DNA from: a candidate division WWE3 bacterium
Lineage (GTDB): Bacteria > Patescibacteriota > WWE3 > JAUXAW01
Assembly: GCA_030619715.1 (NCBI GenBank)
Contig: JAUXAW010000004.1
Coordinates: 1 to 49,598, forward strand
Length of the DNA stretch: 49,598 bases
Direction: 5' to 3'
Both the position numbers and the translations under genes were made by a program. Below are positions 17,337 to 47,848 of the stretch, piece by piece (position 1 is the first letter of the stretch; the number at the start of each line of letters is the position of its first letter). The notes under the pieces are model-generated. The model was given only the letters and a program-made list of their open reading frames with translations. It searched no databases and was not told the DNA's origin.

Positions 17337-18587
17337 ATGTACTTGGCTCTGTTTCTCCACCTCTATCAGCCTCCCACTCAATTTGCTAAAGTCCTGAAAT
17401 CTATTACCGACGACTCTTACCGGCGACTGCTAACTGTCATTTGGAAGTATCCAAGTGCTAAGTTGACGATAAACGTCTCCGGGTCGTTAACCGAGCAGCT
17501 AGCCGCTCACGCTGATTTGCGCAGATGTCTAGCTGATCTCGCTGATTTGGTTGAGAAGGGTCAGGTAGAGTTGGTGGGGAGTGCGGCTTATCATCCGCTT
17601 TTGACGGAGATTCCCAGAGACGAAATCCGCCGTCAGATTCTTCTCAACGACGCGATCAACAAGAGATATTTTGGTGATATGTATAACCCACGCGGCCTTT
17701 TCCCACCGGAGATGGCGGTTAACCGTCAGGTTCTGGAGGTTGTTGCAGAGATGGGATTCGATTGGATTTTGGTGGACGAATCGGCCATAAAAACTCAAAA
17801 ATCAATCCGCCACTGGCGGATCAAAAAGCAAAAATCTTTTATAAATCAAGGTTTGAGGGTTTTCGTCAGAAATTCCGATCTTTCCATCAAGATCGCCTTC
17901 AGCCAAATCCGCACGGTTGAGGAGTTAAAAAAGGAAATCTCCGCTAGGGAGCTAGGTGCTGAGGGCTATGTGCTACTTGCCATGGACGGCGAAACCTTCG
18001 GCCACCACCGCCCGGAGCAGTTCGAGCTGCTATCGCAACTCTTCGCTGCAAGCTCTAAGGATGAAATACAGTTGGTGACAATTTCCGAGCTTCAAGACCT
18101 CATCAAAACCGAACCTGTTGAAGTTGAACTTCAAACATCATCCTGGGGGCCGTGGAAGAGGTGGAAGAACCCGGAGAACCCCATCCACCAGCTTCAGTGG
18201 AAGCTCTTTCATTTGGCAACCAAAACAGTTAGGGGATCAAAGTATAGTTCGGAAAACTCGGAAAACTCAGTGAGTCAGAAAATCAGTGAGCCAGAGGACC
18301 AGAATATCAGAAGTTCTGACACACCGACACACCGACACACTGATACACCGAGTCGTTCTGAGTTTTCTGAATCTCGACAATGGCTTAAAGCAAGAGAACT
18401 CCTGGACAAAGCAATCCATAGCGACCAGTTCTGGTGGGCCTCCGCCCGCCCCTGCTGGCATTATCAGATGGTTGAGCGGGGGGCGAGGATGCTCAAAAAC
18501 GTTGTCTCGACGAGGCAGGCTAAAGAACTTTATGATAAGATTATCGAAACTGGATTGAAACTTCACGGAAAGCGAGTGATCGAATGA
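17337..18587 (+). CDS. Glycoside hydrolase family 57, paralogue 1
   Basis: HLYQP, FPPEMA, DGETFGHH, HSDQFWW; carries a 44-aa insertion relative to paralogue 2. Confidence 0.9.
   Translation: MYLALFLHLYQPPTQFAKVLKSITDDSYRRLLTVIWKYPSAKLTINVSGSLTEQLAAHADLRRCLADLADLVEKGQVELVGSAAYHPLLTEIPRDEIRRQILLNDAINKRYFGDMYNPRGLFPPEMAVNRQVLEVVAEMGFDWILVDESAIKTQKSIRHWRIKKQKSFINQGLRVFVRNSDLSIKIAFSQIRTVEELKKEISARELGAEGYVLLAMDGETFGHHRPEQFELLSQLFAASSKDEIQLVTISELQDLIKTEPVEVELQTSSWGPWKRWKNPENPIHQLQWKLFHLATKTVRGSKYSSENSENSVSQKISEPEDQNIRSSDTPTHRHTDTPSRSEFSESRQWLKARELLDKAIHSDQFWWASARPCWHYQMVERGARMLKNVVSTRQAKELYDKIIETGLKLHGKRVIE
18248..18371. mobile_element. ~124-bp fold-back element in frame in GH57
   Basis: Imperfect terminal inverted repeats; homologous to 47392-47512; absent from the adjacent paralogue. 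Confidence 0.75.
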
Positions 18588-19936
18588 TTTGGGCCAATTT
18601 TCTTCACATCTACCAACCACCAACCCAAACCAAAAGAATTCTGGAGCGGGTGGTCAACGAATCGTACCGGCGGATTATTGCCGAGCTGAAAAAAGCGCCG
18701 AACGCCAAGTTGACCCTCAATATCACCGGCGGCCTAACCGAGCTTTTGGTCGAAAACGGCTTTGGGGACGTTGTTGAGGACCTAAAGGAGTTAGCTCACC
18801 GTGGTCAGATTGAGTTGACCGGCTCGGCCAAATACCACCCCCTTTTGCCAAAACTTCCCCAGTCCGAGGTGATTCGTCAGATTGAACTTGACCACGAGAC
18901 CAACAAGAAATACTTCGGTAATGCCTACAACCCCAAGGGTTTCTTTCCACCTGAGGCCGCCTACAACCGGGAACTGGCTCAAATCGTCGCCGACCTTGGC
19001 TTTGAGTGGATTTTGGCTGAGGAATTGTCGTATAACGGGACTTTTGGGGCGGTAAAATGGGACCGGTGTTATGAAGTTGAGGGGAGTGATTTAAAAATTT
19101 TTTTCAGAGAACGGGAATCTAGTTTTAAGATTCTTTCCGGTCAATTAGGCACTGTCAAACTTTTTGAGGATTACCTCGGCGAGCGTCTTGAGCGTAATGA
19201 GTACCTGCTGACGGCGATGGATGGTGAGACCTTCGGCCACCACCGTCCGGGGATGGAAAAGCTTTTGTTTGAGATTTACCGATCACCGCACATACGTACG
19301 GTAACGATTTCGCAGCTGCTGGAATTATTCCCTCAGACCGAAAGCGTCAAAACAATCCCCTCCACCTGGGCGTTGATGGAAAAGGATATCGAGAAAAAGG
19401 CGCCGTTTTCAAGATGGGATGACCCGGAGAATGAGATCCATAAGCTGCAGTGGGAGCTGACACAGCTTGCCATTGATAGCGTTCAAAAGACGGAAAAGCA
19501 ATGGTTGAAAGCAAGAGAACTTCTGGATCGAAGTTTGCATAGCGACCAATTCTGGTGGGCTTCGGCTCGGCCCTGGTGGAGTTTGGAGATGATCGAGCGG
19601 GGGGCTAATGAACTTAAGGGTGTGGTCCTCGCGGCACCGGATGCTTCCGAGAAGACCAAAAAGAAGGCGCAGGAGCTTTATTACGCTATTATCACCAAGG
19701 GTTTTGAGTGGCAGCGGACGGGTAAGGTTGAGGAAATCGCCCGCAAGGAGGACGAGGAAATTCGAGAAAGAACCGATGTGGGAATTCCTAAACTACCGCC
19801 GGAAGAGATTGAGAAGATGGTCGCAAACATCCGCCGGGAAATGCTTGAGGTGGTGGAGAAACAAGAATACGAGCGGGCGGCGCAGCTTAGGGATCGGATC
19901 AAGGAGTTGGAGGAGTATGCGGAGGACAAAAAATGA
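18584..19936 (+). CDS. Glycoside hydrolase family 57, paralogue 2, with C-terminal UvrB/UvrC motif
   Basis: HIYQP, FPPEAA, DGETFGHH; tail EMLEVVEKQEYERAAQLRDRIKEL. Confidence 0.9.
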   Translation: MIWANFLHIYQPPTQTKRILERVVNESYRRIIAELKKAPNAKLTLNITGGLTELLVENGFGDVVEDLKELAHRGQIELTGSAKYHPLLPKLPQSEVIRQIELDHETNKKYFGNAYNPKGFFPPEAAYNRELAQIVADLGFEWILAEELSYNGTFGAVKWDRCYEVEGSDLKIFFRERESSFKILSGQLGTVKLFEDYLGERLERNEYLLTAMDGETFGHHRPGMEKLLFEIYRSPHIRTVTISQLLELFPQTESVKTIPSTWALMEKDIEKKAPFSRWDDPENEIHKLQWELTQLAIDSVQKTEKQWLKARELLDRSLHSDQFWWASARPWWSLEMIERGANELKGVVLAAPDASEKTKKKAQELYYAIITKGFEWQRTGKVEEIARKEDEEIRERTDVGIPKLPPEEIEKMVANIRREMLEVVEKQEYERAAQLRDRIKELEEYAEDKK

Positions 19937-20928
19937 AGCTTGAGTGGCTGGGGCTTGGTGAGGCCGAGGAGAAAGTTCGAAAGGCCCTAAAAATTCCTAA
20001 AAAAAAGGCAGTTGAGGTCAAAAATGCCAATTTTGGCAAGATTAAAATCCAAAAATTTTTTGCCACTTTTAACTCCAGAACGGTTCTTGCTACATTTTTC
20101 GCCGACCCCAAAGTTGCTAAGAAAGAAGCCCTAATTCTTGATTATCTCAATTCTGTCAAGAGTTTAACTCTTGATAACACCTTTGTGGCGCCGAAAAAAC
20201 TCTATTTCAGAGACGGACTTCTGATTCGGGAGAAGGTTGCCGGTTCGATCCTGCAGCCGTGGGAGTGTTCCGACCAAATTCTTTTGCAGTTGGCTCAGAT
20301 TCTTCTTGCGTTCAAAAATGTACCTGTTCCCGACGAGCTCAAAGAATACAAGCTAAGTTTCGCCCGAATGAAAAAAGAGGCGCTAACACAGGTTCCTCAG
20401 GCAACGGAGGCCTTCACCCCTTTCCGGGGCAGTAAGGAGGTGTTTGCGCAGTTTTCTAAAGTTCTTTCTTTGGATTGGCAGCCGAGGCTGCCGCGTCTTT
20501 CTAAGGGCTTTGTTCACGGCGATTTACAGCCGGGAAATATTTTGCTTGATCCGCCGGAGGCGGACAAGCTTGGCAAGATTTCCTTGATTGACTTTGACCG
20601 CGGCGGTTACTTTTATCCACTTTTTGACGTGGCCAGTTTTGCGGTGCAGTTTACCCACGCCGCCCTTTTGGAGGGCTATCACCACAAGGAAAAACCCGAC
20701 CGACGAGAAATTCGACGCCGCGTCCAGCTTTTTGTTAGGGCGTATCGTCACGGTGCTCAGGATTTTGACGAGGAGGTTTTTAGACTTTTCAAACTTTTGA
20801 TTATCTTTAACGGATTGGCTTTTTCCACCGCCGGCTTCAGAACCAAGGTAGCCCGTGGCCACAAACACCTCCTTTTTGGTTTATTTCGCCAGGAGTTGGG
20901 GTGGTTTGTGGGTCGAGGTGTGAAGTGA
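19933..20928 (+). CDS. APH/choline-kinase-like phosphotransferase
   Basis: VHGDLQPGNIL and LIDFD motifs. Confidence 0.82.
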   Translation: MKLEWLGLGEAEEKVRKALKIPKKKAVEVKNANFGKIKIQKFFATFNSRTVLATFFADPKVAKKEALILDYLNSVKSLTLDNTFVAPKKLYFRDGLLIREKVAGSILQPWECSDQILLQLAQILLAFKNVPVPDELKEYKLSFARMKKEALTQVPQATEAFTPFRGSKEVFAQFSKVLSLDWQPRLPRLSKGFVHGDLQPGNILLDPPEADKLGKISLIDFDRGGYFYPLFDVASFAVQFTHAALLEGYHHKEKPDRREIRRRVQLFVRAYRHGAQDFDEEVFRLFKLLIIFNGLAFSTAGFRTKVARGHKHLLFGLFRQELGWFVGRGVK

Positions 20929-20971
20929 CAATAAACATTAGTCCTGGAAGGTTGTACTGACAAGGAATTCG

Positions 20972-22459
20972 ATGGGGAAGTCTGGAAAATCGAAAAAGAA
21001 AAAGTTGAAAGTTTTGATTGCGGCGTCGGAGTGTGCGCCATTTGTTAAGGTCGGTGGGTTGGCGGATGTGGTTGGGTCTTTGCCCAAAGCGCTCGAAAAG
21101 ATAAACGTTGACGTTCGTGTGGTTATTCCTTACTACAAGGAAGTGCAAAGTTCAAAGTTCAAAGTTCAAAGTTGCAATTCAAAGTTCAAAGTTAAGTTTG
21201 GGAGAGCCGAAGAGGTCGGCGTTTACGAATCGAGATTGCCTGGTTCCGAGGTTCCCATCTACTTTTTGGAAAATCAAAAGTACCTCTCCGGTGGGGGAGT
21301 TTACTTCAGCAAGGATGCTTTTGTTTCCAGTCAAGAGGAGATTAGAAGGTTTGCCTTTTTCTCAAAAGCCGTTGTTGAGTTTATTAAAGTGAGTGAACGG
21401 AAGCCCGATGTGGTTCACTGCAACGATTGGCACACCGGTTTAGTGCCGGGATTGATTAAAAGTTCAAAGTTGGGACATTCCGCAACTGTCTTCACCATTC
21501 ACAATTTAGCCAACCAGGGGTTCGCTGAATTGAGTATTTTGAAGAATTTAAACTCTATCACTCCTGAATCTGAACTGATAAGATGGGACGCAGAGGATGA
21601 TAACCTCGACCTTATGCTCCAAGGCGTCACCGCCGCCGATGTCGTTAGCACTGTCAGTCCGAGCTATGCTAAGGAGATTTTGACCCCCGAATTTGGCGAG
21701 GGGCTCCATCAAGTGCTAAAAGCACGGGAAGCCCGTCTCTTTGGTATCCTCAACGGAATCGACTACCAAATTTGGAATCCGGAGATGGATCAAAAGATCG
21801 AGTTCAACTACGGGCTCAAGGAGGGTCCGGCAGGCAAAGTGGGCAACAAGATTTATCTGCAGAAAGAGCTGGGTTTGACCGTCAATCCCGAGGTTCCTCT
21901 CATTGGAGTGGTTACTCGTCTGGCCGAGCAGAAGGGCATTGACATTCTCCTGGAGGCTCTGAAGGGTATTTTGGCTTTTGGGGCGCAGTTGGTGATTTTG
22001 GGAGTAGGTGATCCAAAAATTGAGAAAGAATTAAGGATTAAGAACGAAGAATTAAGGGAAAAGGGGAGCTTCAAGGCGATTATTAGGTTTGACGAAGAGC
22101 TCGCTCACCGTATCTACGCCGCTTCCGACCTCTTTCTGATGCCCTCCAAGTTTGAACCCTGCGGTCTGGTGCAGATTATTGCCATGCGCTACGGAGCCCT
22201 ACCGATCGTCAGGGAAACCGGGGGGCTTAAGGACACGGTCGAAGACGCCAAAACGGGGTTTGTCTTCAGGGAATACTCGGCCGAGGCTCTACTGGAAGTG
22301 GTTGAGCGTGCGGCTGGTCGCTTCGGCGTTGAAAATATTGAGTTTCGGCAAATGATTAGCAGAGCGATGCAAGCGGATTTTTCTTGGGAACGTTCGGCCG
22401 GGGAGTATTTACAACTCTATCAACGTGCGTTAGAATATAAGAACCTGCAATCCGCCTAA
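20972..22459 (+). CDS. glgA: Glycogen synthase (GT5) paralogue 2
   Basis: KVGGLADV, HCNDWH, SKFEPCGL, TGGLKDTV. Confidence 0.93.
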   Translation: MGKSGKSKKKKLKVLIAASECAPFVKVGGLADVVGSLPKALEKINVDVRVVIPYYKEVQSSKFKVQSCNSKFKVKFGRAEEVGVYESRLPGSEVPIYFLENQKYLSGGGVYFSKDAFVSSQEEIRRFAFFSKAVVEFIKVSERKPDVVHCNDWHTGLVPGLIKSSKLGHSATVFTIHNLANQGFAELSILKNLNSITPESELIRWDAEDDNLDLMLQGVTAADVVSTVSPSYAKEILTPEFGEGLHQVLKAREARLFGILNGIDYQIWNPEMDQKIEFNYGLKEGPAGKVGNKIYLQKELGLTVNPEVPLIGVVTRLAEQKGIDILLEALKGILAFGAQLVILGVGDPKIEKELRIKNEELREKGSFKAIIRFDEELAHRIYAASDLFLMPSKFEPCGLVQIIAMRYGALPIVRETGGLKDTVEDAKTGFVFREYSAEALLEVVERAAGRFGVENIEFRQMISRAMQADFSWERSAGEYLQLYQRALEYKNLQSA

Positions 22460-22524
22460 GTCGGATTGCAGAACCTTGCATTTGAGCATAGTCTCCGCTT
22501 CGCTACGACTGTTAGCTCAAAAGT
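22438..22524 (+). repeat. 79-bp dispersed element, copy 2 (inner hairpin replaced)
   Basis: Same flanks as copy 1; inner hairpin is TGCAATCCG-cctaagt-CGGATTGCA; supplies the glgA stop. Confidence 0.9.
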
Positions 22525-22544
22525 AAGAGGGAGGAAGCGTTTTG

Positions 22545-23483
22545 ATGACCAAATTCCGCCAAAACCCGATCACCAAAGAGTGGACAATTATCTCCCCGGG
22601 ACGCAAAAAAAGGCCGGTAGCGGTTGGGCCGAAATCAGCCTTGAGCGGAGCCGAAAGGTGTCCCTTTTGCGTCGGCAATGAGGACTTGGCTCCGGTTGAG
22701 GTTTATCGACTCCCCGCGGGTACGAAGGGTAATACCGAGTGGAGGACGCGGGTAATTCCCAATAAGTATCCGATCACTGATTTTCACGAGGTAATCATCC
22801 ACAGTCCCGACCACGAAAAAGACCTCGATGAGTTGCCTTTGGAGCAGGTTGAGCTCGTTCTCCGCACCTACAAGGATCGATACAATTTTTACAAAAACAA
22901 AAGATCCGACTTTTATGTCCATATCTACAACAACGCTGGCAAAGAGGCCGGAGCTTCGATAAGACATCCGCACTCACAGTTGGTGGTTTTCAACCATATT
23001 CCCGAGGAGGTGGCCGAAGAGATTGAGGGGGCTAAAGATTATTTTGAGAGAAAGGGCGTTTGTCCCTATTGCGACCTGGTCAAAAAGGAAATTAGCAGTA
23101 AGGAGAGGGTAGTGCTAGAAGGTGAGTTTTTCGTGGTCTTAACGCCTTTCCAATCCGAGTGGCCCTACGAGATTACGATTTTTCCGAAAAAGCACCAAGC
23201 CGACTTTGGTCAAATTAGCGATGAGGAGCTTGTGGACCTCGCCTCGGTCCTGCAGCAAACTTTGAAAGCATACAACAAGGTTCTTTCCAATCCCGATCGC
23301 AATTTCTGGATTCACTCACTACCCATTCGTGGAGAAGATCCTCGGGCTCAGTACTACCACTGGCACTTGGATCTGATTCCCCGCATCAAAACCCTCGGCG
23401 GATTGGAGCTTGGGGCCGGTATTATGGTCGACGACCGCGTCGGCCCCGAAACCGCCGCCAAGCAGCTGCGAGAGGTTTTGTAA
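22545..23483 (+). CDS. galT: GalT-like hexose-1-phosphate nucleotidyltransferase
   Basis: CPFC, NKYP, HEVII, GASIRHPHSQ. Confidence 0.88.
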   Translation: MTKFRQNPITKEWTIISPGRKKRPVAVGPKSALSGAERCPFCVGNEDLAPVEVYRLPAGTKGNTEWRTRVIPNKYPITDFHEVIIHSPDHEKDLDELPLEQVELVLRTYKDRYNFYKNKRSDFYVHIYNNAGKEAGASIRHPHSQLVVFNHIPEEVAEEIEGAKDYFERKGVCPYCDLVKKEISSKERVVLEGEFFVVLTPFQSEWPYEITIFPKKHQADFGQISDEELVDLASVLQQTLKAYNKVLSNPDRNFWIHSLPIRGEDPRAQYYHWHLDLIPRIKTLGGLELGAGIMVDDRVGPETAAKQLREVL

Positions 23484-23488
23484 TTCAG

Positions 23489-23524
23489 GCTCGGCTCACG
23501 ATTCACTCTTCGAGCATTCGCCCT
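23489..23524 (+). repeat. Dispersed element, copy 1
   Basis: 24 bp GCTCGGCTCACGATTCACTCTTCG identical to 38566-38589. Confidence 0.85.
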
Positions 23525-23531
23525 GCAGGCC

Positions 23532-23921
23532 CTACTTCAGTTCAACTTTCGCCCCCGCCGCCTCCAGCTTCTTCTTGGCCTCTTCGGCGTCTTCTTTCTT
23601 GGCTTTTTCCAAGACCAGCTTCGGGGCCGATTCGACCAATTCTTTGGCTTCCTTCAAACCCAACTGCTGGTTGATTTCGCGAACGGCTTTAATAACCTTG
23701 ATTTTCTGATCTCCGGCGGCAGCAAGAATGACATCATATTCGGACTTCTCTTCAGCCTTAGCCTCACCTTCAGCTTGCTCCGCTGGAGCGGCTGCGGGGG
23801 CGGCCATTGCCGCGGCACTGACACCAAACTTTTCCTCCAAGGCCTTAACCAACTCATTGAGCTCCAACACAGTCAGGGATTCAACGTCTTTGATAATACC
23901 TTCAATATCCTTTTTTGCCAT
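23532..23921 (-). CDS. rplL: 50S ribosomal protein bL12
   Basis: [30 protein letters not shown]. Confidence 0.97.
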
Positions 23922-23927
23922 GATAGT

Positions 23928-24434
23928 TCACCCCGCTTTCAAAACCGTAACCAACTTCACTTGATTCCCCTTCGCCACACTAACCAGTCTGACAATGGGG
24001 GACTGTATCATTCCCACAACCTTTGCCAACAGGACCTCACGACTGGGTAGCGAGGCAATCTCTTTCAGCGTTTCACCAACTGTCCAAACCCCCTCAAAAA
24101 ACCCACCCTTGACCTTCAGCGCTTCGTGCTCTTTGGCAAACTCATACAAAACCTTCAGTGGCTTGATCTCGTCTTCATAACTCAAAACCACCGCAGTTGG
24201 TCCTGCCAACTGGTAATCAGTAATTGGTAATTGGTGATTAGTATCTTTGAGAGCCAGGTTCAGTAAAGTGTTTTTAACAACTTGATAGTCTGCCTGAAAC
24301 TTATCCAATTGCCTCCGCAACACCTCAACCTCGGGCACCGAAAGCCCGTGATAATCGGTAAGAATAACGCCTTTTGCCTTTGATAATTTTTCTTTTAAGT
24401 TTTTAACAATTTGGATCTTTTTCTCGCTAGGCAT
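23928..24434 (-). CDS. rplJ: 50S ribosomal protein uL10
   Basis: DYHGLSV, VVKNTL, LPSREVLLAK. Confidence 0.96.
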   Translation of the reverse strand: MPSEKKIQIVKNLKEKLSKAKGVILTDYHGLSVPEVEVLRRQLDKFQADYQVVKNTLLNLALKDTNHQLPITDYQLAGPTAVVLSYEDEIKPLKVLYEFAKEHEALKVKGGFFEGVWTVGETLKEIASLPSREVLLAKVVGMIQSPIVRLVSVAKGNQVKLVTVLKAG

Positions 24435-24442
24435 TTTGACCT

Positions 24443-24492
24443 CCTACACGGGCGGGAAGCCTTTAAGCTAGGCAGCTCCCGTGGTCTTAGGA
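24443..24492 (-). promoter_or_regulatory. L10 leader-like autoregulatory RNA
   Basis: Minus strand TAAGACCACGGG...TTAAA...CCCGTGTAGG just upstream of rplJ. Confidence 0.65.
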
Positions 24493-24505
24493 ACTAACTA
24501 GAGCC

Positions 24506-24534
24506 ATTTTAGCAAGTCTCAGTTCCCTCGTCAA
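24506..24534 (-). promoter_or_regulatory. rplJ promoter
   Basis: TTGACG-17 bp-TAAAAT with TG extension. Confidence 0.75.
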
Positions 24535-24570
24535 TCCTCGTATTTTTAGCTTTGAGCTGTAGTTTTGAGT

Positions 24571-24993: not shown

Positions 24994-24996
24994 CTT

Positions 24997-25584: not shown

Positions 25585-25596
25585 CCTGCCGCTCCT

Positions 25597-25708
25597 AAAC
25601 TCAAAACGCAAAACCCAAATCTCAAAACCACAACTTAGATCTCAAATCTTTAAAGATTTACGGTTTTGACATGTGGATTTGAGTTTTGACATTTGAGATT
25701 TGAGATTT
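25597..25708. repeat. Inverted heptamer-array element
   Basis: AAATCTC-like units on the left, TTTGAGA-like units on the right, between secE and nusG. Confidence 0.8.
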
Positions 25709-25891
25709 TTACTTAACAATCACTCCCACCAACTTCGTCAACACGTAGTCTAGCACTCCTATGTACAGTCCTACCACCAGACTGACTCCAACCACAATCG
25801 CCGTCAGTCGCAGCGTCTGCTGCCGCGTCGGCCAAACAACCTTTTTCAGCTCCGTCTGGACCTCTTTTAAGAATTTAGTCAGTTTGTTCAT
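25709..25891 (-). CDS. secE: Preprotein translocase SecE
   Basis: ELKKVVWPTR plus one TM; upstream of nusG. Confidence 0.95.
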   Translation of the reverse strand: MNKLTKFLKEVQTELKKVVWPTRQQTLRLTAIVVGVSLVVGLYIGVLDYVLTKLVGVIVK

Positions 25892-25936
25892 AACACGCTA
25901 GGGATTCTAGCATAAGCGGGGGAGGGGAGTAAAGGA

Positions 25937-26010: not shown

Positions 26011-26015
26011 TTATC

Positions 26016-26262: not shown

Positions 26263-26280
26263 TTCATTTCCATTTCAATC

Positions 26281-26356: not shown

Positions 26357-26357
26357 G

Positions 26358-39177: not shown

Positions 39178-39180
39178 ATT

Positions 39181-39729: not shown

Positions 39730-39749
39730 TAAAGACTGGGTTATTTTTA

Positions 39750-40820: not shown

Positions 40821-40830
40821 AATATTGCTA

Positions 40831-42276
40831 ATGGAGTTTGAGAAGAAGGAAATTGTTAAAAAGTCAGAGGATTTTTCCCGCTGGTATACCGATGTTATTT
40901 TGAAGGCGGAGTTGGCGGATTACGCGCCAGTTAAGGGCTGTATGGTCATTCGGCCCTACGGTTATGCTCTCTGGGAGGGGGTACAAAAACATCTGGGGCA
41001 GGCGATCAAGGACTCCGGTGTCCCCAACGCCTATTTTCCTCTTTTTATCCCTCATTCTTTTTTGGAAAAAGAAAAGGAACACGTCAAGGGCTTTTCGCCG
41101 GAGCTGGCGGTGGTCACCCACGGCGGCGGTAAAAAGTTGGCCGAGCCGTTGGTCGTCCGCCCAACCTCGGAGACGATTATGTATCCGATGTTCGCCAAGT
41201 GGATTCAAAGCTGGCGCGATCTTCCCTTTAAAATTAACCAGTGGTGCAATATTGTCCGCTGGGAGCTGCGGACCTACCTCTTTCTGCGGACTTTAGAATT
41301 TTTATGGCAAGAGGGTCACACCGCCCACGCGACCCACGAAGAGGCCGAGGAAGAGGCTCTGGCTCGGCTCGAAATGTACAGGAGGTTTGTCGAAGGGGTG
41401 TTGGCAATTCCGACGATCGTTGGCAAAAAATCAGGCGCGGAAAAGTTTGCCGGAGCGGAAGATACTTACACCGTCGAAGCCCTAATGCCCGATGGTAAGG
41501 CCTTGCAGTGCGGGACTTCCCACAATTTGGGTCAAAATTTTGCCAAGGCGTTTGAGATTCAGTTTCAGGATAAGAATGGTCAGTTGCAGCACGTTTATCA
41601 AACCAGTTGGGGACTTTCGACGCGGATAATTGGTGCTCTAATTATGGTCCACGGTGATGACAACGGTTTGGTTCTGCCGCCGGAAATTGCGCCGATTCAA
41701 GTCGTTGTTGTCCCGATTGGAGAAAAATCTCAAATGTCAAATCTCAAATTTCAAAACCACATCTCAAATCTCAAAACTGACTTGGAAACTGCTGGCATTC
41801 GTGTGAAAATTGACGATCGCGAGGAACGCAGTGTGGGGTGGAAATTTAACGAATGGGAATTGAAAGGCGTGCCGGTTCGCATAGAGATAGGTTCGCAAGA
41901 AATTAAGAACAAATCAGTTACGGTAGTCAGAAGAGATACCGGAGAAAAATCCCAAATCCCAAATCCCAAATCCCAAACGGAAATAGAAAGAATTCTTGAC
42001 GATATTCAGCAAAATCTTTACCAAAAAGCCCAAAAGTCCCTAAAGGAAAACACCCACGAAGTAGGGGATTACGCAGAATTCAAAAAGATTATGTCCGGGC
42101 CACGGGGATTTATCAAGGCCTTTTGGTGCGGCTCGGCCGAGTGCGAAGCAAAAATTAAGGAGGAAACAAAGGCGACGATCCGGGCCATTCCTCTCAAACC
42201 AGAAAAAACTTTGGGTAAGTGTGTTTTCTGTGGCCAACCCGCATCCTCCCGTGTTTTCTTCGCCCAGGCGTACTAG
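40831..42276 (+). CDS. proS: Proline--tRNA ligase (archaeal/eukaryote-like type)
   Basis: RPTSET, EFLWQEGH, QTSWGLSTR, C-terminal AQAY. Confidence 0.96.
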   Translation: MEFEKKEIVKKSEDFSRWYTDVILKAELADYAPVKGCMVIRPYGYALWEGVQKHLGQAIKDSGVPNAYFPLFIPHSFLEKEKEHVKGFSPELAVVTHGGGKKLAEPLVVRPTSETIMYPMFAKWIQSWRDLPFKINQWCNIVRWELRTYLFLRTLEFLWQEGHTAHATHEEAEEEALARLEMYRRFVEGVLAIPTIVGKKSGAEKFAGAEDTYTVEALMPDGKALQCGTSHNLGQNFAKAFEIQFQDKNGQLQHVYQTSWGLSTRIIGALIMVHGDDNGLVLPPEIAPIQVVVVPIGEKSQMSNLKFQNHISNLKTDLETAGIRVKIDDREERSVGWKFNEWELKGVPVRIEIGSQEIKNKSVTVVRRDTGEKSQIPNPKSQTEIERILDDIQQNLYQKAQKSLKENTHEVGDYAEFKKIMSGPRGFIKAFWCGSAECEAKIKEETKATIRAIPLKPEKTLGKCVFCGQPASSRVFFAQAY

Positions 42277-42397
42277 TTTGTGTAGTTAAGCCGAATCCAG
42301 TTTTTTGCGGCCTCAATTTCCTTTAACCTCAACACCAACTTTCTCCACCCCGTTTGCCAAAAATTGACGGGTTGGATAAAATGAAAAAGGAGGCGAG

Positions 42398-42793
42398 ATG
42401 GCCGAAAATTGTGTTTTTTGCAAGATTGTTAGGGGAGAAATCCCTTGCTATAAAGTCTACGAAGACGAGGATTTTTTGGCTTTTTTGGATGTAAAACCTT
42501 TAACGAAAGGCAATGCGTTGGTAATCCCGAAGAAACATTATCGTTGGGTTGATGACGTTCCCGATTTTGGCGAATACTTTGAAGTAGCCCGGAAAGTAGG
42601 GCAGGCGACCAAGAAAGCCTTTGGTGCCGAATTCATCTCTTACATAACTATTGGTCTTGAGGTGTCTCACGCCCACATCCGTGTGGTTCCAAGATACAAA
42701 GACGATAAGCATGGGGGTCTAGTCACACTCGAGGTGACCGAGGACTTTTCCGATGAAGAGATGAAAGACATTGCAAAGAAGTTTGATATTTGA
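42398..42793 (+). CDS. HIT family hydrolase
   Basis: CVFCKI, LVIPKKH, HAHIRVVPR (third His of the triad is Arg). Confidence 0.9.
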   Translation: MAENCVFCKIVRGEIPCYKVYEDEDFLAFLDVKPLTKGNALVIPKKHYRWVDDVPDFGEYFEVARKVGQATKKAFGAEFISYITIGLEVSHAHIRVVPRYKDDKHGGLVTLEVTEDFSDEEMKDIAKKFDI

Positions 42794-42830
42794 GATTTGG
42801 AACTTTTTATGATGGGGGGTGTTTTGATGA

Positions 42831-43019
42831 ATGGCAAAAATTACCGTGCGGGAAGGCGAGACAATCGAGCGGGCGTTACGACGCTTTAAGCGCGAGGTTC
42901 AGAAAGCGGGGATTATGGACGAGCTCCGCAAGCGCGAGTTTTACGAAAAACCCTCCGTTGTCAAAAAACGCGAAGAAGCGCAGAAGAAGCGCAAAATTGA
43001 AAAAGAAAGACAAGCTTGA
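42831..43019 (+). CDS. rpsU: 30S ribosomal protein bS21
   Basis: [15 protein letters not shown]. Confidence 0.96.
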
Positions 43020-43022
43020 TTT

Positions 43023-43472
43023 ATGACCTTACCAGAAAAGATTCGTCACAATCTCACAACAGCGATGAAAGCGGACGATAAGGTCCGCGTTTCCACACTG
43101 CGGATGCTTTTGGCGGCTCTACACAACGAGGAGATTGAGCTCGGTCGACAGCTGCGGGGCGAAGATGCAGCAAGGATCGTTAAGCGGTTAGTCAAGCAGC
43201 ATCGTGAATCAATCAGGGAATTCCACCGCGGCGGTCGGGAGGATTTGGTCAAAAAGGAAGAGACGGAACTTGAGATCTTGCAGGAGTATCTGCCGAAGAT
43301 GATGGAAGAGGAGGAAATTGAGGGGTACGCCGACGAGGTGATTGCCGAGGTTGGAGCCGGTGAGCCAAAGGATTTGGGTCGGGTAATGGCGGTTTTGATG
43401 CCGAAGCTGGCCGGGAAAGCCGATGGTGCTGTTGTGAATAGAATTGTTAGGGAAAAACTCTCTGCCAGTTAG
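43023..43472 (+). CDS. GatB/YqeY domain protein
   Basis: AMKA...TLRML, EYLP, GKADG; follows rpsU. Confidence 0.92.
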   Translation: MTLPEKIRHNLTTAMKADDKVRVSTLRMLLAALHNEEIELGRQLRGEDAARIVKRLVKQHRESIREFHRGGREDLVKKEETELEILQEYLPKMMEEEEIEGYADEVIAEVGAGEPKDLGRVMAVLMPKLAGKADGAVVNRIVREKLSAS

Positions 43473-43583
43473 TGCGGCTTTCGGGTCTGCCGCGCTTCAC
43501 TCAGGGAACCCCTGCGCTATTATAAAGAATTAAGGAGCGAACCCTAACGTTCCGCGCCGGCAGACCGCTCAACCCGCTTTGTT

Positions 43584-43826
43584 ATGGACAAACTTAGGAT
43601 TGGTTTGGCTTTCGTCAGTGACAAAAAGATGCAGGAGTTAAATAAAAAGTATCGAAATGTTGACGAGCCGACCGATGTTCTTTCGTTTCCTTTTAACGAA
43701 GAACTTCCCGACGGGACTTATTTTTTGGGAGAAATTGTTGTTAATGTTGATGAGGTGAAAGGCAAGGAAGCGATTTTGGAAAGAATTGTGCACGGGGCCA
43801 AGAATTTATTGAAGGAATTTAAGTGA
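43584..43826 (+). CDS. ybeY: Minimal or degenerate YbeY
   Basis: LNKKYR, PTDVLSFP, LGEIV; only 80 aa, metal motif incomplete. Confidence 0.8.
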   Translation: MDKLRIGLAFVSDKKMQELNKKYRNVDEPTDVLSFPFNEELPDGTYFLGEIVVNVDEVKGKEAILERIVHGAKNLLKEFK

Positions 43827-44299
43827 GATTGATCGTCGGTCTCGGTAATCCGGGTAAGGAGTGTGAGGGAACTCGTCACAACATTGGTTTCTGGATGGTT
43901 GATCGTCTGAAAAAGGAAATTAGCGGTCGGGAGACCTCTTTTTTTAAGAACTCAAATTTTGTCAACGAAGCAGGAAAAGATGTTAAGAAAACTATCAGCC
44001 GTCTCAAAATTCCGCTAGAGGATGTGCTGATTATCCACGACGATTTTGATCTTGAACTAGGCCAGTTTAAGCTCCAATTTAACCGTTCCTCGGCCGGCCA
44101 CAAAGGTGTGCAGTCGGTGATTGACGAACTTGGCTCTCAGGCCTTCTGGCGGCTCAGAATAGGTATCAGGCATCCGCCGGAGGGAGTTGAAGCCGATGAC
44201 TACGTCCTTGCCCGCTTTTCCCCTCAGGAACGGGAGATTCTCGAGGCGACTTTCCCGCAAATCCTCCTCACTGCCCAAAATTGGTTATTGAAAAAATAA
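43823..44299 (+). CDS. pth: Peptidyl-tRNA hydrolase
   Basis: VGLGNPG, TRHNIG, IHDDFD, AGHKG, RLRIGI. Confidence 0.95.
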   Translation: MRLIVGLGNPGKECEGTRHNIGFWMVDRLKKEISGRETSFFKNSNFVNEAGKDVKKTISRLKIPLEDVLIIHDDFDLELGQFKLQFNRSSAGHKGVQSVIDELGSQAFWRLRIGIRHPPEGVEADDYVLARFSPQEREILEATFPQILLTAQNWLLKK

Positions 44300-44329
44300 C
44301 CTCGTTGCTGTTTACTGATTACTGGTTCT

Positions 44330-45757
44330 ATGTTCTACACCAAATACCGCCCACCAAATTTTGATGAGCTCTTCTTCGGGCTGGAGTCGATTGTTAGGGC
44401 TTTAACTTCACAGTTGGAAAAGGGTCGGGTAGGCCACGCCTATCTTTTTTTTGGACCGCGGGGAACCGGCAAGACGACGACGGCGCGGATTTTGGCGAAG
44501 GAGGTCGGTTGCCGCGGTCTGGACCTGATCGAAATCGACGCCGCCAGCAACCGTGGGATTGATGACATTCGCAATCTTCGCGAGAAAATCAGTCTCGCAC
44601 CTACAGAGGGCGATTATAAGGTCTATGTTATTGATGAGGTCCATATGTTGACGAAGGAGGCATTTAATGCTCTTTTGAAGACTCTCGAAGAGCCCCCCTC
44701 ACATGCGATTTTGATTCTTTGCACCACCGAACCGCACAAGGTTCCCGAGACAATTCGCTCCCGCTGTCAAAAGTTTGAGTTTAAACGGGCCTCAATCGCA
44801 GACATTGTCAAAAAGCTCAAACTCATTGTTGAAAGTGAGAAAGCAGAAATATCTGGCGAGGATCTTCAACTTCTGGCTAAGAATGCGGAGGGGGGCTTTC
44901 GGGATGCCGAAACGATGCTCGAGCAGATGATTGTGGGTGGTTTACCCGCTGCTGAGGTTGTAGGGCTTGCCCCGAGCGTAGGCAAGGGGGTGGGGGAGTT
45001 TGTTGAATTTTTATTAAACCAGCAGGTATCAGAAGCGATTAAGTTTGTTAACCGCACGTACGAAAGTGGATCGAACCTTACCAATTTTAACCAAACAATT
45101 TTGGAGTATCTACGCGGCCTACTTTTGGTAAAGAATGGGGTTGGAGAAGAACTACTAGAGGTACCCGAAGAAAACTACAAGCAGATGAAAGAGCAAGCGA
45201 GTAAGCTAAGTGGTCAAAACCTGGATTTTATGATCACAGAATTTACTCAAGTGGGTTTTCAACTTCAAGATTCGGCTATTCCTCAACTGCCTTTTGAGCT
45301 TGCTGTAACAAGGATAGCGGGAAAACTTGAGGCTCAAAGCTCGATGCGGGAAGCTGGAAACGAAAAAGAGACGAACAATCCTCATAAGGTATCCTCGGAG
45401 GATAAAAGATACCCTAAAGACCCAAAAGCTGTATCTGGTATAATTGAAGGATGGGATTCAGTTCTACAGACAGTTAGGTCTTATAACCACTCGTTAGAAG
45501 CGTTGCTTAAATCCTGCCGACCGTTAAAAATTGAGGAGGGAAAATTAATTTTGGAAGTCTTTTACAAATTTCACAAAGAGAGGTTGGAAGAGGCGAAAAA
45601 CAGGAATCTTTTGGAAAAAGTTTTAAAGGAAGTGACAGGCTTGCCTGTTAAGGTACGCTGTATTTTGGGAAAGAAAAAGGATAATCCTAGGGGTCGGAGC
45701 AAGGATTTTGATACGGTGGAAAAATCAGCGCTTGAAGTGTTTAACGGGGAACTATGA
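44330..45757 (+). CDS. dnaX: DNA polymerase III gamma/tau
   Basis: GPRGTGKT, IDEVHML, FNALLKTLEEPP, SRC. Confidence 0.96.
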   Translation: MFYTKYRPPNFDELFFGLESIVRALTSQLEKGRVGHAYLFFGPRGTGKTTTARILAKEVGCRGLDLIEIDAASNRGIDDIRNLREKISLAPTEGDYKVYVIDEVHMLTKEAFNALLKTLEEPPSHAILILCTTEPHKVPETIRSRCQKFEFKRASIADIVKKLKLIVESEKAEISGEDLQLLAKNAEGGFRDAETMLEQMIVGGLPAAEVVGLAPSVGKGVGEFVEFLLNQQVSEAIKFVNRTYESGSNLTNFNQTILEYLRGLLLVKNGVGEELLEVPEENYKQMKEQASKLSGQNLDFMITEFTQVGFQLQDSAIPQLPFELAVTRIAGKLEAQSSMREAGNEKETNNPHKVSSEDKRYPKDPKAVSGIIEGWDSVLQTVRSYNHSLEALLKSCRPLKIEEGKLILEVFYKFHKERLEEAKNRNLLEKVLKEVTGLPVKVRCILGKKKDNPRGRSKDFDTVEKSALEVFNGEL

Positions 45758-46374
45758 TGGTCGTTCCAAAGTCCATCAAAAACCTGATTGAAGCTTTCGA
45801 AAGACTCCCAGGGATTGGTCCCAAGACCGCGGCACGACTGACTTTTTATCTTTTACACGTGCCGGAAGCTGAAGTTGAGGCCTTAGCCGAGGCCGTCGAG
45901 CGGCTCAAAAAAGATACAGTCACCTGTCAAACTTGTTTTAATGTTGCCGAAAGCGACCCTTGCGAAATTTGTTCGTCGTCGCAGCGGAACCGCGCGGTTC
46001 TGGCCGTCGTCGAATCACCTTTGGATGTTCTCGCCCTGGAGCGCGCCGGTTTCAGGGGGCTTTATCATGTTCTTCAAGGAGTAATTGATCCTCTGAATAA
46101 CATCGGGCCGGAGGAGTTGAGGATTAAGGAGTTGTTGCACCGTTTTGCGCCCTCGGCCTCTGCGGTGAAGGAGATAATCCTCGCCACTAACCCCTCCGTC
46201 GAAGGCGAGGCGACGGCAATGTTTATTAAACGAAATCTCAAATCTCGAATCTCAAATCTCAAAACTCCAATCAAGATGACCAGATTAGCTCGGGGGCTTC
46301 CCGTCGGAGGAGACTTGGAGTATGCCGACGATGTAACCTTAGGCAAGGCGCTGGAGGGAAGGACGGAATATTAG
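45754..46374 (+). CDS. recR: Recombination mediator RecR
   Basis: LPGIGPKTAAR, C4 zinc finger, EGEATA, GGDLEYAD. Confidence 0.96.
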   Translation: MMVVPKSIKNLIEAFERLPGIGPKTAARLTFYLLHVPEAEVEALAEAVERLKKDTVTCQTCFNVAESDPCEICSSSQRNRAVLAVVESPLDVLALERAGFRGLYHVLQGVIDPLNNIGPEELRIKELLHRFAPSASAVKEIILATNPSVEGEATAMFIKRNLKSRISNLKTPIKMTRLARGLPVGGDLEYADDVTLGKALEGRTEY

Positions 46375-46375
46375 G

Positions 46376-47848
46376 ATGCTGAAGCTTTACAACACTTTAA
46401 CCCGCCAAAAAGAAATCTTTGAGCCACTCAAATCAGACTACGTCCGCCAGTATGATTGTGGACCAACGGTCTATTGGTACGCCCACATCGGCAATCTGTG
46501 GCGCTACATGATGTCCGACCTTATCCGTCGGGTTTTGGAGTTCAACGGTTACCAAGTCAAGCAGGTGATGAATATCACCGATGTGGGGCATTTAACCGAT
46601 GAGGATTTGGCGGCGGATACCGGAGAGGACAAGATGGAGGTCGCCGCCCGCCGTGAAAAGAAAACCCCGCAAGAAATTGCCGAATTTTACACCCAGGCAT
46701 TTCTTAAGGATTTAGACGGTCTCAATATTCAGCGTCCGCACGTGATGCCCAAGGCAACTGACCACATCCCCGAAATGATTGCTTTGATTCAGCGGTTAGA
46801 GGAAAAAGGTTATGTCTATCGCGCTGGCAATTACGTTGTCTTTGACATCTCAAAATTTCCCGATTATAGCAAGCTTTCCGGTAAAAATCTCGACGAGCTT
46901 CGGGTCGGTGCTCGTCTGGAGCCGGTCGAGGGGAAGAAAAACCCCTTTGATTTTGCTCTCTGGATCGTTGACCCTCAACATCTGATGCGTTGGGATTCGC
47001 CATGGGGAGTAGGGTATCCCGGTTGGCACATTGAGTGCTCAGCGATGTCGATGAAGTATTTGGGGGAGCAGCTGGACATTCACACCGGCGGGGAAGACAA
47101 CATTTTTCCGCATCACGAAAACGAAATCGCCCAGAGCGAGGCGGCGACCGGCAAGCAGTTTGTTAAGTACTGGCTGCATGCGGGGTTTTTGCAGGTTGAG
47201 GGCAAGAAAATGAGTAAGTCTTTGGAGAATTTGTATCGGTTGGATGATTTGATGGGGCGTGGTTTTGTCCCGTCGGCGTTCCGCTATCTCTGTTTGACCG
47301 CTCACTACCGCACCCCGCTTAATTTTACCTGGGACGGCCTCGAGGCGGCGCAGAATGCTCTTAAAAAGTTGAGGGAGTTTGCGCGGTCGATTTCGGAAAA
47401 CGGTTCAGAACAACTCGGAAAACTCAGTGAGCCAGACGGTCAGAAAGTCGGAAAGTCAGATACTCTGGCGCACCGACGCACCGACGCACCGAGTCGTTCT
47501 GAGTTTTCTGAATACCACCAACGCTTCCGAGAAGCTATTAATGATGACTTAAATACGCCCCAGGCCCTGGCGGTGGTTTGGGATTTGGTCAAATCAGCAC
47601 GTGCGGATACAAGTTTGCGACCTGTAGCCTACAAACTTTTACGAGGTTTTGACAAGGTTCTGGGACTTAAATTGACTGAAGTATGTGCGGAAGCGATTCC
47701 GCAGGTGCCGAAGCAATTAGTTGAGGAGCGCGAGCGTCATCGTCGAGAGGGCCACTTCGACGAAGCCGATCAAATTCGCCAAAAAATCCTCGACCTCGGC
47801 TACACTGTCGAGGATACTTCTGAAGGCCCAAAGATTAAGAAAGCCTAA
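46376..47848 (+). CDS. cysS: Cysteine--tRNA ligase
   Basis: [25 protein letters not shown]. Confidence 0.97.
47392..47512. mobile_element. ~121-bp fold-back element in frame in cysS
   Basis: Shares AACTCGGAAAACTCAGTGAG and CACCGAGTCGTTCTGAGTTTTCTGAAT with 18248-18372. Confidence 0.75.

Follow-up and report, generated by a model that had tools for sequence, protein, structure and literature searches.

The window, the whole 49,598-nt stretch of DNA that was analysed, comes from a candidate division WWE3 bacterium and contains two fold-back copies, e1 and e2, one lying within a gene for a GH57-family glycoside hydrolase and the other within the gene for cysteinyl-tRNA synthetase (cysS), for which the best match among solved structures is 8qhp (E 1.2e-109). 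The features are collected in Table 1. An earlier note had taken the two copies to be members of one fold-back family with a common left block and an identical right end, and this holds. The longest exact string at the right end measures 26 nt (27 nt by BLAST extension, which adds one base) and gives 2 matches against 0 expected from 100 shuffles, while an 18-nt left motif matches the places of e1 and e2 only (0.06 expected). Folding returns a long imperfect hairpin for each copy, with energies of -43.9 and -52.6 kcal/mol on the + strand (z -4.0 and -5.0) and -56.2 and -57.5 kcal/mol on the - strand (z -5.1 and -5.2); none of 200 shuffles folds as well. The arms consist of 8-9-nt units, as had been noticed by inspection and as the TRF period of 8-9 bears out. 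Rfam places no family at either copy, and its sole matches across the window are 6 tRNAs.

Table 1. Fold-back copies, their conserved blocks and their host genes in the window.
Feature	Coordinates	Strand	Remarks
Fold-back copy e1, 124 nt	18248..18371	+	in frame within GH57 gene; 41-residue coding
Fold-back copy e2, 121 nt	47392..47512	+	in frame within cysS; 40-residue coding
e1 right terminal block, conserved	18346..18371	+	identical to 47487-47512
e2 right terminal block, conserved	47487..47512	+	identical to 18346-18371
e1 left block, conserved	18255..18279	+	24/25 nt shared with 47412-47436
e2 left block, conserved	47412..47436	+	24/25 nt shared with 18255-18279
Host gene 1: GH57-family glycoside hydrolase, 416 aa	17337..18587	+	Pfam PF03065, E 7.9e-40
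GH57 paralogue without insert, adjoining host gene 1	18584..19936	+	internal control
Host gene 2: cysteinyl-tRNA synthetase (cysS), 490 aa	46376..47848	+	Pfam PF01406, E 8.8e-102

A search for more copies found five in the 674-kb genome, four short (121-142 nt) and one long, and others in further genomes of the candidate phyla (CPR). Three copies lie in frame, in the GH57 gene, in cysS and in a GT4 glycosyltransferase gene (e3), and e4 is intergenic. A profile built from the four short copies and run on the genome matches those copies and both arms of a longer element at C17:7360-7870 only (E 3.6e-7, 1e-6 and 2.4e-5), the next match beyond the family having an E of 0.51. The first 24 nt of e1, once reverse-complemented, match the right end of this long copy exactly, e2-e4 have exact strings of 14-18 nt in common with its left end, and the terminal inverted repeats TTCRGAAAACTCAG ... 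CTGAGTTTTCYGAA are conserved across all copies. Judged by sequence, the family relationship between the short copies and the long one is established. [quoted passage not shown] The Rfam 23S alignment breaks there at model position ~2529/2530, in domain V, around an insertion of ~800 nt that we describe as group-I-intron-like; its match to Rfam Intron_gpI (22.1 bits, E 0.0032) lies under the gathering score of 50. A DUF2693 RNA match in the same insertion (Rfam E 6.5) was dismissed as chance. This full-length relative, absent from the earlier note, is the most informative piece of the family.

The reading frames of the coding copies follow a consistent pattern. Both e1 and e2 sit inside uninterrupted ORFs and are read, as had been claimed, in the same frame counted from the element's first base, and e3 is read in this same open frame. 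Stops per frame number 5,0,1,1,1,2 in e1, where the +1 frame alone is stop-free, 3,0,0,2,1,1 in e2 and 2,0,1,3,1,2 in e3, such that the stop-free frame is single in 2 of the 3 coding copies; the intergenic e4 has 1-3 stops in each of its six frames. In the GH57 gene the spacing from HxLQW to HSDQFWW is 77 residues compared with 33 in the neighbouring paralogue, and these 44 extra residues are the same difference that the earlier note had given as 49 versus 5. All three inserts are placed between Pfam domain matches, that of e2 falling between the catalytic domain of CysRS (residues 15-326) and its DALR domain (383-431). The insert peptide is low-complexity, and in the CysRS structure model it appears as a disordered inter-domain loop, with pLDDT below 50 at residues 344-372 and confident helices on either side. 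In-frame placement, placement in linkers and a reading-frame filter are direct properties of the three coding copies. Together with the five copies and the presence and absence of the insert in cysS, described below, this filter upholds the proposal of a dispersed, coding-tolerant, selfish-like repeat family.

The two host genes record different histories. A GH57 orthologue with 65% identity (P0007) carries the insert at the same site and in frame, and its insert shares the first 9 and last 6 residues with that of e1, compared with 12 of 28 residues in the interior (manual count). This copy, at least, is old and was retained by vertical descent, a history as compatible with a tolerated resident as with an active element. 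In genomes of the same order, GH57 genes of 39-48% identity have other sequences at the insert site, and the relatives G002 and G007 have different in-frame hairpins there. When DNA of the insert-bearing GH57 orthologue was sought in metagenome contigs, the best of the 80 loci kept was 41% identical.

Alignment of CysRS orthologues had been set beforehand as the comparison that could overturn the proposed family, and the proposal withstood it: at the insert site the orthologues have short, variable and unrelated linkers. The insert is present in 5 of 12 close CysRS proteins, a proportion that is not a prevalence since these were the top-ranked by a region including the insert, and requires 5 changes on the tree, which is the maximally scattered outcome; the pairs P0002/P0014, P0011/P0017 and P0013/P0020 are each discordant. 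The closest protein to the CysRS of the window, P0014, forms a sister grouping with it and is 94.9% identical upstream of the linker, yet the linker it has is unrelated and shorter by 23 residues. In two runs of the source's study, contigs join 47366 to 47552 by 116 letters instead of 185, which is the same 69-nt difference, and contigs from another study span both element junctions. Presence and absence of the insert between near-identical cysS alleles is observed, the insert-less allele being represented only by a protein and the 116-letter contig segment. Four other CysRS proteins retain the insert in frame, and the similarity of these inserts does not track that of their hosts, in that the insert of P0002 is closest to that of P0013 (79%) while their host N-parts are only 52.8% identical. 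Part of the scatter on the CysRS tree could reflect repeated decay, because several "empty" linkers hold faint traces (e.g., ...SEY), and part could reflect chimeric metagenome contigs.

The same arms recur with the same protein elsewhere. Among PF05635 homologues from five other genomes, the two closest (66% and 68% identity), from two other CPR genomes, both have the arm type of our long copy. One of them lies in a 23S insertion that is homologous to ours and shares its flanks, and the second is a frameshifted pseudogene that is not in rRNA. Homologues of at most 46% identity have other units in their arms; across this set the arm type travels with the PF05635 protein subfamily. A two-ended pattern scan of other CPR genomes gave 20 matches, 12 of which are true period-8 fold-backs, 4 of these 12 being in frame inside long ORFs. 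Searching 1.84 billion protein representatives with the insert peptide returned 6 matches at E <=0.001, three of them true (one GH57 orthologue and two small ORFs) and three unrelated repeat proteins. No target-site duplication was shared, by eye, among the flanks of the 5 own and 12 foreign copies. Copy-specific covariation of the arms gave no signal: in just 1 of 16 copies did the left arm pair best with the right arm of its own copy, and duplex energy is about equal within (-31.5) and between (-29.6) copies. Because the arms lack copy-specific compensatory change, maintenance of the stem is demonstrated no further than the shared unit consensus.

We consider it probable that the fold-backs in the window are gene-less, coding-tolerant derivatives of a repeat-armed cassette of the intervening-sequence (IVS) type, and that they are translated through. 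The full-length cassette resides in the group-I-intron-like 23S insertion, and short copies would have spread to at least four other sites. A short copy landing in coding DNA would survive only in a stop-free frame and in a tolerant inter-domain linker, where translation would turn it into a hydrophilic, disordered loop of ~40-46 residues; its arms would then acquire and lose units over time, whereas the outermost ~25 nt would be preserved. The coding short copies are presumably translated. We infer that the short copies derive from the cassette through loss of the ORF rather than in the opposite order, in which a hairpin would have come first and the ORF been added later. Spread probably followed a DNA-level route: copies and alleles may have exchanged sequence by recombination or gene conversion, or an enzyme acting on hairpins may have mobilised the elements in trans. 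We know of no mobilising function for PF05635 proteins, a large family with no function known to us.

The abundance of short repeats in this genome raises the alternative that the hairpins formed in place without mobility, when short units slipped during replication and template switching created quasi-palindromes in the already variable linkers of a repeat-prone lineage. Strong tandem arrays of period 7-9 number 134 in the genome (98, 18 and 18), against at most 3 arrays for any other period, and 77 of the 134 lie within crude ORFs; right arms hold locally homogenised units that are unpaired with the left arm (e.g., GACACACC x4.2 in e1), unit-size indels separate strains in the contigs, and the different in-frame hairpins of G002 and G007 occupy a single GH57 site. 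We nevertheless judge a local origin quite unlikely, as it cannot explain the matching terminal and left blocks at unlinked loci, the same ends on the 23S cassette, the same family in other CPR classes and other contexts, or inserts of cysS alleles that resemble copies elsewhere above the inserts of their closest relatives. An element useful to its host, either as a structured RNA signal (an RNase III site, a determinant of mRNA stability or a translation pause) or as a selected flexible linker, would accommodate the greater conservation of the terminal parts over the interior in the comparison with P0007, the persistence of the GH57 insert through divergence to 65% identity, and the stabler hairpin of the - strand in 15 of 16 copies (by a mean of 7.7 kcal/mol), an asymmetry unexpected from neutral decay. 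Such usefulness seems improbable to us in light of near-identical cysS alleles that do without the insert, the unrelated host genes, a peptide that is low-complexity and modelled as disordered, the Rfam result in the window and the orientation of the copies, the intergenic one being antisense to its flanking genes and the coding ones sense.

Two further proposals concern the machinery involved. The elements might be REPIN-like, that is, non-autonomous hairpins moved as single-stranded DNA by the genome's own Y1 (HUH) transposase of the RAYT/IS200 kind, with the four-helix-bundle gene a passenger in one copy. The search for an enzyme found one Y1_Tnp-like gene (G000:C33:14688-15458, 257 aa), whose score of 23.0 bits on Pfam PF01797 equals the cut-off. 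In NCBIfam it matches "REP-associated tyrosine transposase" best, with 43.5 bits, under the cut-off of 80 for that model. It is established that Y1 enzymes work on hairpins and produce no target-site duplication, which the lack of visible duplications fits; a search of this 92%-complete genome revealed none of the DDE/rve, DDE_Tnp_1 and TnpB-type domains, and 49 of the 134 genomes in the class have homologues of the Y1-like gene, often several each. However, the gene lacks the arms of this family, standing ~13 and ~49 nt from its neighbours in a pilin-like cluster, and across the 134 genomes it shows no evident correlation with period-8 arrays: G007, the richest in such arrays (17 pattern matches), has no homologue by this query at 85% completeness, whereas G001 has 3 homologues, G002 has 6, and neither has a period-8 pattern match. 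As 3 of the 5 copies are intragenic, unlike REPINs, and the model leaves unexplained why arm type is inherited together with the PF05635 subfamily, we regard this route as unlikely. Removal at the RNA level had been suggested in the earlier note; the stem would be excised from the mRNA and the ends rejoined, or the ribosome would bypass it, leaving the proteins uninterrupted. The elements do fold strongly, and the long copy is built like the ORF-bearing IVS whose stem is cut by RNase III in Coxiella, where excision leaves two 23S rRNA fragments (PMC4990558). This suggestion finds no support in our data and we hold it to be extremely improbable, for it gives no reason why each of the three coding copies, along with the inserts of the GH57 orthologue and of four further CysRS proteins, should be stop-free and in frame, when the intergenic copy has stops in all frames, and the lengths of the coding copies at the hairpin boundaries (124, 121 and 140 nt) are not multiples of three. 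Ligation is not known to follow such IVS excision, and an mRNA cut in this way would be destroyed.

To our knowledge, in-frame selfish palindromes have been thought nearly exclusive to Rickettsia. We found no description of such a family for CPR bacteria in the literature, and to this extent it is new, as the earlier note had proposed, with the Rickettsia palindromic elements (RPEs) as precedent (Ogata et al. 2000, 2002, as summarised in the MITE review PMC10969869). The analogy drawn with them is apt: as outlined in that review, RPEs are palindromic repeats of ~100-150 bp, read through in frame in unrelated housekeeping genes at sites where the fold tolerates an insert, and have no transposase of their own. 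It is an analogy of function only, as the phylum differs and the sequences are presumably unrelated; here the arms are tandem 8-nt units, a full-length relative contains the PF05635 gene, and the genome has 5 copies, compared with 44 RPE integrations in R. conorii genes (PMC10969869). With MITEs the family shares terminal inverted repeats, but its same-ended partner encodes a PF05635 four-helix-bundle protein and no known transposase. The long copy resembles the S23p IVS of Coxiella burnetii and Leptospira, in which a PF05635/S23p-type gene lies in a stem loop within 23S; in Coxiella, tandem heptamers of strain-variable number adjoin a decaying ORF (PMC4990558). It differs from the Coxiella IVS in occupying a group-I-intron-like insertion in domain V rather than helix 45, and e1 and e2 differ from S23p IVS in having no ORF and in lying in protein-coding genes rather than rRNA. 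Its setting matches the 2024 survey of CPR rRNA, in which 82% of 23S genes have insertions, over half of them group-I-like, and 23S_rRNA_IVP ORFs occur in 16S and 23S insertions; the available text of that survey makes no mention of repeat arms or of gene-less derivatives in protein-coding genes, and "inverted repeat" has 0 matches in its main text (PMC11270868). REPINs and RAYTs, as presented in PMC3337134 and PMC3116915, provide a parallel in non-autonomous hairpins of ~100 nt with two inverted repeats and long vertical persistence, and the single Y1 transposase-like gene of this genome adds to the likeness; here, however, that gene is free of flanking repeats and the arms are unit arrays rather than single REPs. 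The heptamer direct repeats (TAACTGA) abundant in Beggiatoaceae and cyanobacteria (MacGregor 2015, PMC4679880) are likewise 7-nt-class units with CTGA, abundant between genes and present in ORFs only in the stop-free orientation, mostly at protein peripheries, and possible mobility and a possible binding protein are raised for them. They differ in being direct repeats with a proposed regulatory role rather than 8-nt-unit hairpins with conserved ends, and the text of PMC4679880 gives 0 matches for "intervening sequence", "four-helix" or "S23" as a link to PF05635.

A broader reading, which we put forward tentatively and consider rather doubtful at present, is that hairpins with repeat arms, whether or not they enclose a PF05635 gene, belong to a single undescribed class of mobile DNA in bacteria. 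The four-helix-bundle protein would be a factor that the element itself supplies and that recognises the unit arrays cognate to it, and the elements would home or convert between alleles and copies while living in rRNA introns, in intergenic spacers and, as gene-less hairpins, in frame in essential genes. If true, this would account at once for PF05635 as an orphan family, for intervening sequences in rRNA and for the surplus of 7-9-nt tandem repeats that many bacterial genomes show. CPR genomes are among the smallest known, and purging of such DNA might be expected; despite their tiny genomes, CPR bacteria now show Rickettsia-like in-frame selfish palindromes. What is new here is the sequence link between the full-length cassette, with its "23S rRNA intervening-sequence protein", and gene-less hairpins that are presumably translated within proteins, along with the presence/absence pattern, and if protein and arms cooperate this would offer a testable handle on the function of PF05635 and the origin of rRNA intervening sequences. 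The inserts also enlarge and diversify protein linkers, giving strain-level alleles of essential genes such as cysS, and may seed assembly or recombination chimeras in metagenomes.

The two fold-back stretches described in the earlier note, one (e1) in a GH57 gene and the other (e2) in cysS, proved on inspection of the sequence to be real and as described. They share a right end of 26 identical nucleotides (two matches against none expected over 100 shuffles), or 27 nt by BLAST with the next base counted, and their left blocks are identical at 24 of 25 nt by BLAST. Folding predicts a long imperfect hairpin for each, at -43.9 and -52.6 kcal/mol (e1 and e2) on the plus strand and -56.2 and -57.5 kcal/mol on the minus strand, with z-scores of -4.0 to -5.2 and none of 200 shuffles folding equally well. 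The minus-strand hairpin is the stabler in 15 of 16 copies, with G·U pairs on the minus strand where the plus strand has A·C mismatches; no compensatory pairing specific to a copy was found between the arms. As claimed, both elements use one reading frame if frames are numbered from where each element begins, and the paralogue control holds, with 33 residues between two conserved motifs in the neighbouring GH57 versus 77 in the e1-bearing gene.

The proposal that these stretches belong to a dispersed repeat family is borne out within the organism's own genome, an assembly of 674 kb in 36 contigs (92% complete, 48% G+C) of which the window is contig C14. A search by BLAST and by a profile of the short copies gave five members and nothing else, the best match of the profile outside the family having an E-value of 0.51. 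In addition to e1 and e2, these are a short copy (e3) in a GT4 glycosyltransferase gene, an intergenic short copy (e4) and a long copy. The frame used by all three coding copies is the sole frame open in all three, and e4, under no need of translation, carries stops in all six. The inserts in GH57, CysRS and GT4 are all located between Pfam domain matches.

Locations of the elements and associated features (C9, C17, C19 and C33 are contigs of the organism's own genome, G000; L numbers are loci; stops are counted in frames +0, +1, +2, -0, -1, -2)
Feature	Location	Context	Stops per frame	Basis
GH57 gene hosting e1	window 17337-18587	uninterrupted ORF		Pfam
CysRS gene hosting e2	window 46376-47848	uninterrupted ORF		Pfam
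e1	window 18248-18371	in frame in GH57 gene	5, 0, 1, 1, 1, 2	inspection
e2	window 47392-47512	in frame in cysS	3, 0, 0, 2, 1, 1	inspection
e3	C19:4761-4900	in frame in GT4 glycosyltransferase, frame as in e1 and e2	2, 0, 1, 3, 1, 2	BLAST/profile
e4	C9:18476-18617	intergenic, rplS/rnhB; orientation opposite to both genes	3, 2, 1, 2, 3, 3	BLAST/profile
Long copy	C17:7360-7870	family matches at both ends		BLAST/profile
23S rRNA gene	C17 (L010 4375-8410)	rRNA operon
PF05635 pseudogene locus	L109 1440-1797 (genome G134)	outside rRNA
Second PF05635 gene	C19 (L011 3669-3705 and 4085-4195)	directly upstream of e3-bearing GT4 gene
Hairpin in GH57 of relatives G002 and G007	L210 2425-2586; L213 and L219	in frame, same GH57 loop site
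Y1/RAYT-like gene	C33:14688-15458 (L222 2186-2959)	minus strand, prepilin-like gene cluster
Fold-back with heptamer arms	window 25597-25709	between start of minus-strand gene and cluster of four tRNA genes
Tandem duplication	window 12282-12328	overlapping ends of opposite-strand ORFs 11140-12402 (-) and 12359-13384 (+)		TRF
Heptamer arrays	window 4452-4482, 4581-4613, 21141-21193, 41725-41775, 41947-41977, 46233-46272, 48282-48313	inside long ORFs

The long copy lies in an rRNA operon (16S, two tRNAs, 23S and 5S), in a 23S gene of 4036 nt set against a model of 2925 positions. The alignment is interrupted after model position ~2529 and picks up ~800 nt further on, and inside this insertion family-type arms enclose a 122-residue ORF that matches PF05635, '23S rRNA intervening-sequence protein' (E 2.1e-19), and TIGR02436, 'four helix bundle protein'; the entire unit is predicted to fold with its arms paired. 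Reverse-complemented, the right end of the long copy matches the first 24 nt of e1 exactly, and e2, e3 and e4 have exact strings of 14, 18 and 17 nt, respectively, in common with its left end. At the level of sequence, a link is demonstrated between the short fold-backs and a cassette of the intervening-sequence (IVS) type in the 23S gene. The 3' part of the insertion gives a weak match to the group I intron model (22.1 bits, E 0.0032, the gathering score being 50). The surplus of the 23S gene over its model comes to ~1100 nt, ~800 nt being the cassette-bearing insertion, which leaves roughly 300 nt of additional insertion for other parts of the gene.

Arm type was compared by searching the C17 protein against five genomes containing foreign copies of the hairpin family. 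Its two closest homologues there, at L108 and L109, both have the C17 arm type, and the arms of homologues with identities of 46% or lower are made of other units. The L108 homologue (66% identity) is located in a 23S gene, within an insertion that shows visible homology in its flanks to our genome's 23S insertion, yet apparently occupies a different 23S position. At L109 (68% identity) the PF05635 gene has been pseudogenised by a frameshift and stops and the family arms remain, making this locus a plausible intermediate between cassette and gene-less hairpin. In the own genome the Pfam cut-off is exceeded by eight PF05635 genes; judged by eye only, seven of them have arrays of tandem 7-9-nt units no more than 140 nt away, on one flank or both, with a separate unit for each gene. 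At the second of the PF05635 genes listed in the table, direct copies of its left arm stand on either side of the ORF, and after them comes a small but complete fold-back with units of a different family.

The reading of the cysS stretch as an insert holds in an orthologue alignment of the query and the best 11 of 2074 CysRS homologues, ranked on residues 270-440, which favours insert-bearers, so that counts are not prevalences: the insert is present in five of the 12, and in the other seven the linker is unrelated and 24-51 residues long. On trees of these 12 proteins built without the linker, the insert label needs five changes for the N-part and for both parts together and four for the C-part, of which well-supported branches force at least three, at least two and at least one, respectively. 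An insert-bearer is paired with an insert-less protein in P0011/P0017 (support 97/99, starred) and P0013/P0020 (100/100, starred), and the window's CysRS (P0002) groups with the insert-less P0014 on the N-part tree (80/99, not starred). Upstream of the linker, P0014 and the window's CysRS are 94.9% identical; the linker of P0014 itself is unrelated and 23 residues shorter. Two runs in the source's own study contain contigs (~96% alike) that join window position 47366 to 47552 with 116 other letters replacing 185, a 69-nt difference that equals P0014's linker shortening and constitutes independent evidence; in a run of another study, contigs span both element junctions in cysS. The insert is present or absent between near-identical cysS alleles. 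Across the CysRS set and the own-genome copies, insert similarity is out of step with host similarity: the window's cysS insert has its nearest counterpart (79%) in P0013, a protein 52.8% identical in its N-part, and its next nearest (72%) in the own genome's GT4 copy. P0012, P0013 and P0020 have distant N-terminal catalytic parts (53-61% identity), yet their C-parts resemble that of the window's CysRS as closely as near relatives' C-parts do; this pattern suggests that recombination occurred close to the linker or that the metagenome contigs are chimeric.

Of 1.84 billion representative proteins, six matched a profile made from the three insert peptides at E <=0.001, and three of the six are real. 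Among these is a GH57 orthologue with 65% overall identity; its insert lies at the same site, with identical terminal residues and a diverged interior, and the GH57 copy is therefore old. The relatives G002 and G007 have a different in-frame hairpin, with heptamer arms, at this GH57 loop site, that of G007 with a GC-rich perfect palindrome nested in its left arm, and within the order the flanking motifs are 33 to 103 residues apart. In an AlphaFold2 model of CysRS built with 11 orthologues (mean pLDDT 85.5, pTM 0.79), residues 344-372 fall below pLDDT 50 and form only a 4-residue helix (347-350) between confident helices 319-343 and 374-389; alignment gaps against the solved CysRS 8qhp fall in the same stretch. 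The earlier suggestion that the inserts are removed at the RNA level is unsupported, and we argue instead that they are probably translated, given the frame filter, the placement in linkers, the age of the GH57 insert and the disordered loop model.

When one genome per prokaryote species was scanned with a two-ended pattern, 20 loci came up, which on inspection comprise 12 true period-8 fold-backs, one ambiguous case and seven that are probably chance. The 12 lie mostly in Patescibacteria MAGs (Woese-, Levy-, Microgenomates, Saccharimonadales), the other labels being Acidiferrales for two loci of one MAG and Gammaproteobacteria for one locus of a bin. Long ORFs span four of them in frame: three occupy the same site in orthologous Wzy_C-type membrane proteins, in a frame unlike the window's, and the fourth lies in a 783-residue protein in the frame of the window's copies. 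The remaining eight are intergenic or at gene ends on a crude ORF map. A generic period-8 pattern reached three or more matches in only four of 134 class genomes (G000 9, G003 9, G007 17, G004 3; at most 2 for the reversed pattern as control), all within the organism's own order of eight genomes, and the relatives' arrays have different units, many being single arms. The own genome contains 134 strong arrays of period 7-9 (98, 18 and 18), of which 77 are within crude ORFs; no other period gave more than three arrays.

The description of the family as a selfish, coding-tolerant element is largely right, in that five copies, use of the open frame and presence/absence in cysS speak for it; on the other side, no target-site duplication is visible by eye at own or foreign copies, and PF05635 proteins are not known to mobilise DNA. 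Domains of the rve, DDE_Tnp_1 and TnpB types were not found in the own genome. One Y1/RAYT-like tyrosine transposase gene (257 residues), wedged among the prepilin-like genes, scores at the Pfam cut-off and below that of NCBIfam REP_Tyr_transpos; no arms flank it, and its homologues, found in 49 of the 134 class genomes at up to 8 per genome, do not track with period-8 arrays across relatives. The scatter of the cysS insert, at a single site throughout, can be explained by recombination or gene conversion between alleles no less well than by repeated transposition, and conversion between copies would explain how an old GH57 copy and the cysS copy have a perfect 26-nt end in common. Comparison of arrays and contigs indicates that the arms change by gain and loss of units.

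These elements are related to known kinds, namely in-frame palindromes like the Rickettsia palindromic elements (RPEs) and ORF-bearing IVSs. RPEs are presented as the outstanding case of in-frame palindromes in the relevant part of a MITE review (PMC10969869), and the corresponding passages on the Coxiella IVS (PMC4990558) describe a 28-bp terminal stem, excision by RNase III, a decaying S23p ORF and, next to it, tandem heptamers that vary in number. For candidate-phyla (CPR) bacteria, Tsurumaki et al. 2024 (PMC11270868) report 23S_rRNA_IVP ORFs in rRNA insertions, and a word search of the main text of that article does not return 'inverted repeat'. A passage of MacGregor 2015 (PMC4679880) describes abundant TAACTGA heptamers that occur within ORFs only in the stop-free orientation. 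No literature match found for in-frame palindromic elements of the Rickettsia type named Patescibacteria, nor did any paper among the matches listed for RAYT, and the literature searched yielded no description of a hairpin element of the e1/e2 type in CPR bacteria. What is new here is the link between the fold-backs and the IVS cassette, together with the finding that near-identical cysS alleles differ in having or lacking the insert.

The window also holds other short repeats. Tandem heptamer arrays of 4-8 units occur inside several of its long ORFs, among them the gene just upstream of cysS. The fold-back beside the tRNA genes has tandem heptamer arms, AAACTCA-type on the left and TTTGAGA-type on the right, of a unit family distinct from that of e1 and e2, and the tandem duplication at the overlapping ORF ends is perfect (24-nt unit, 2.0 copies, 100% match).
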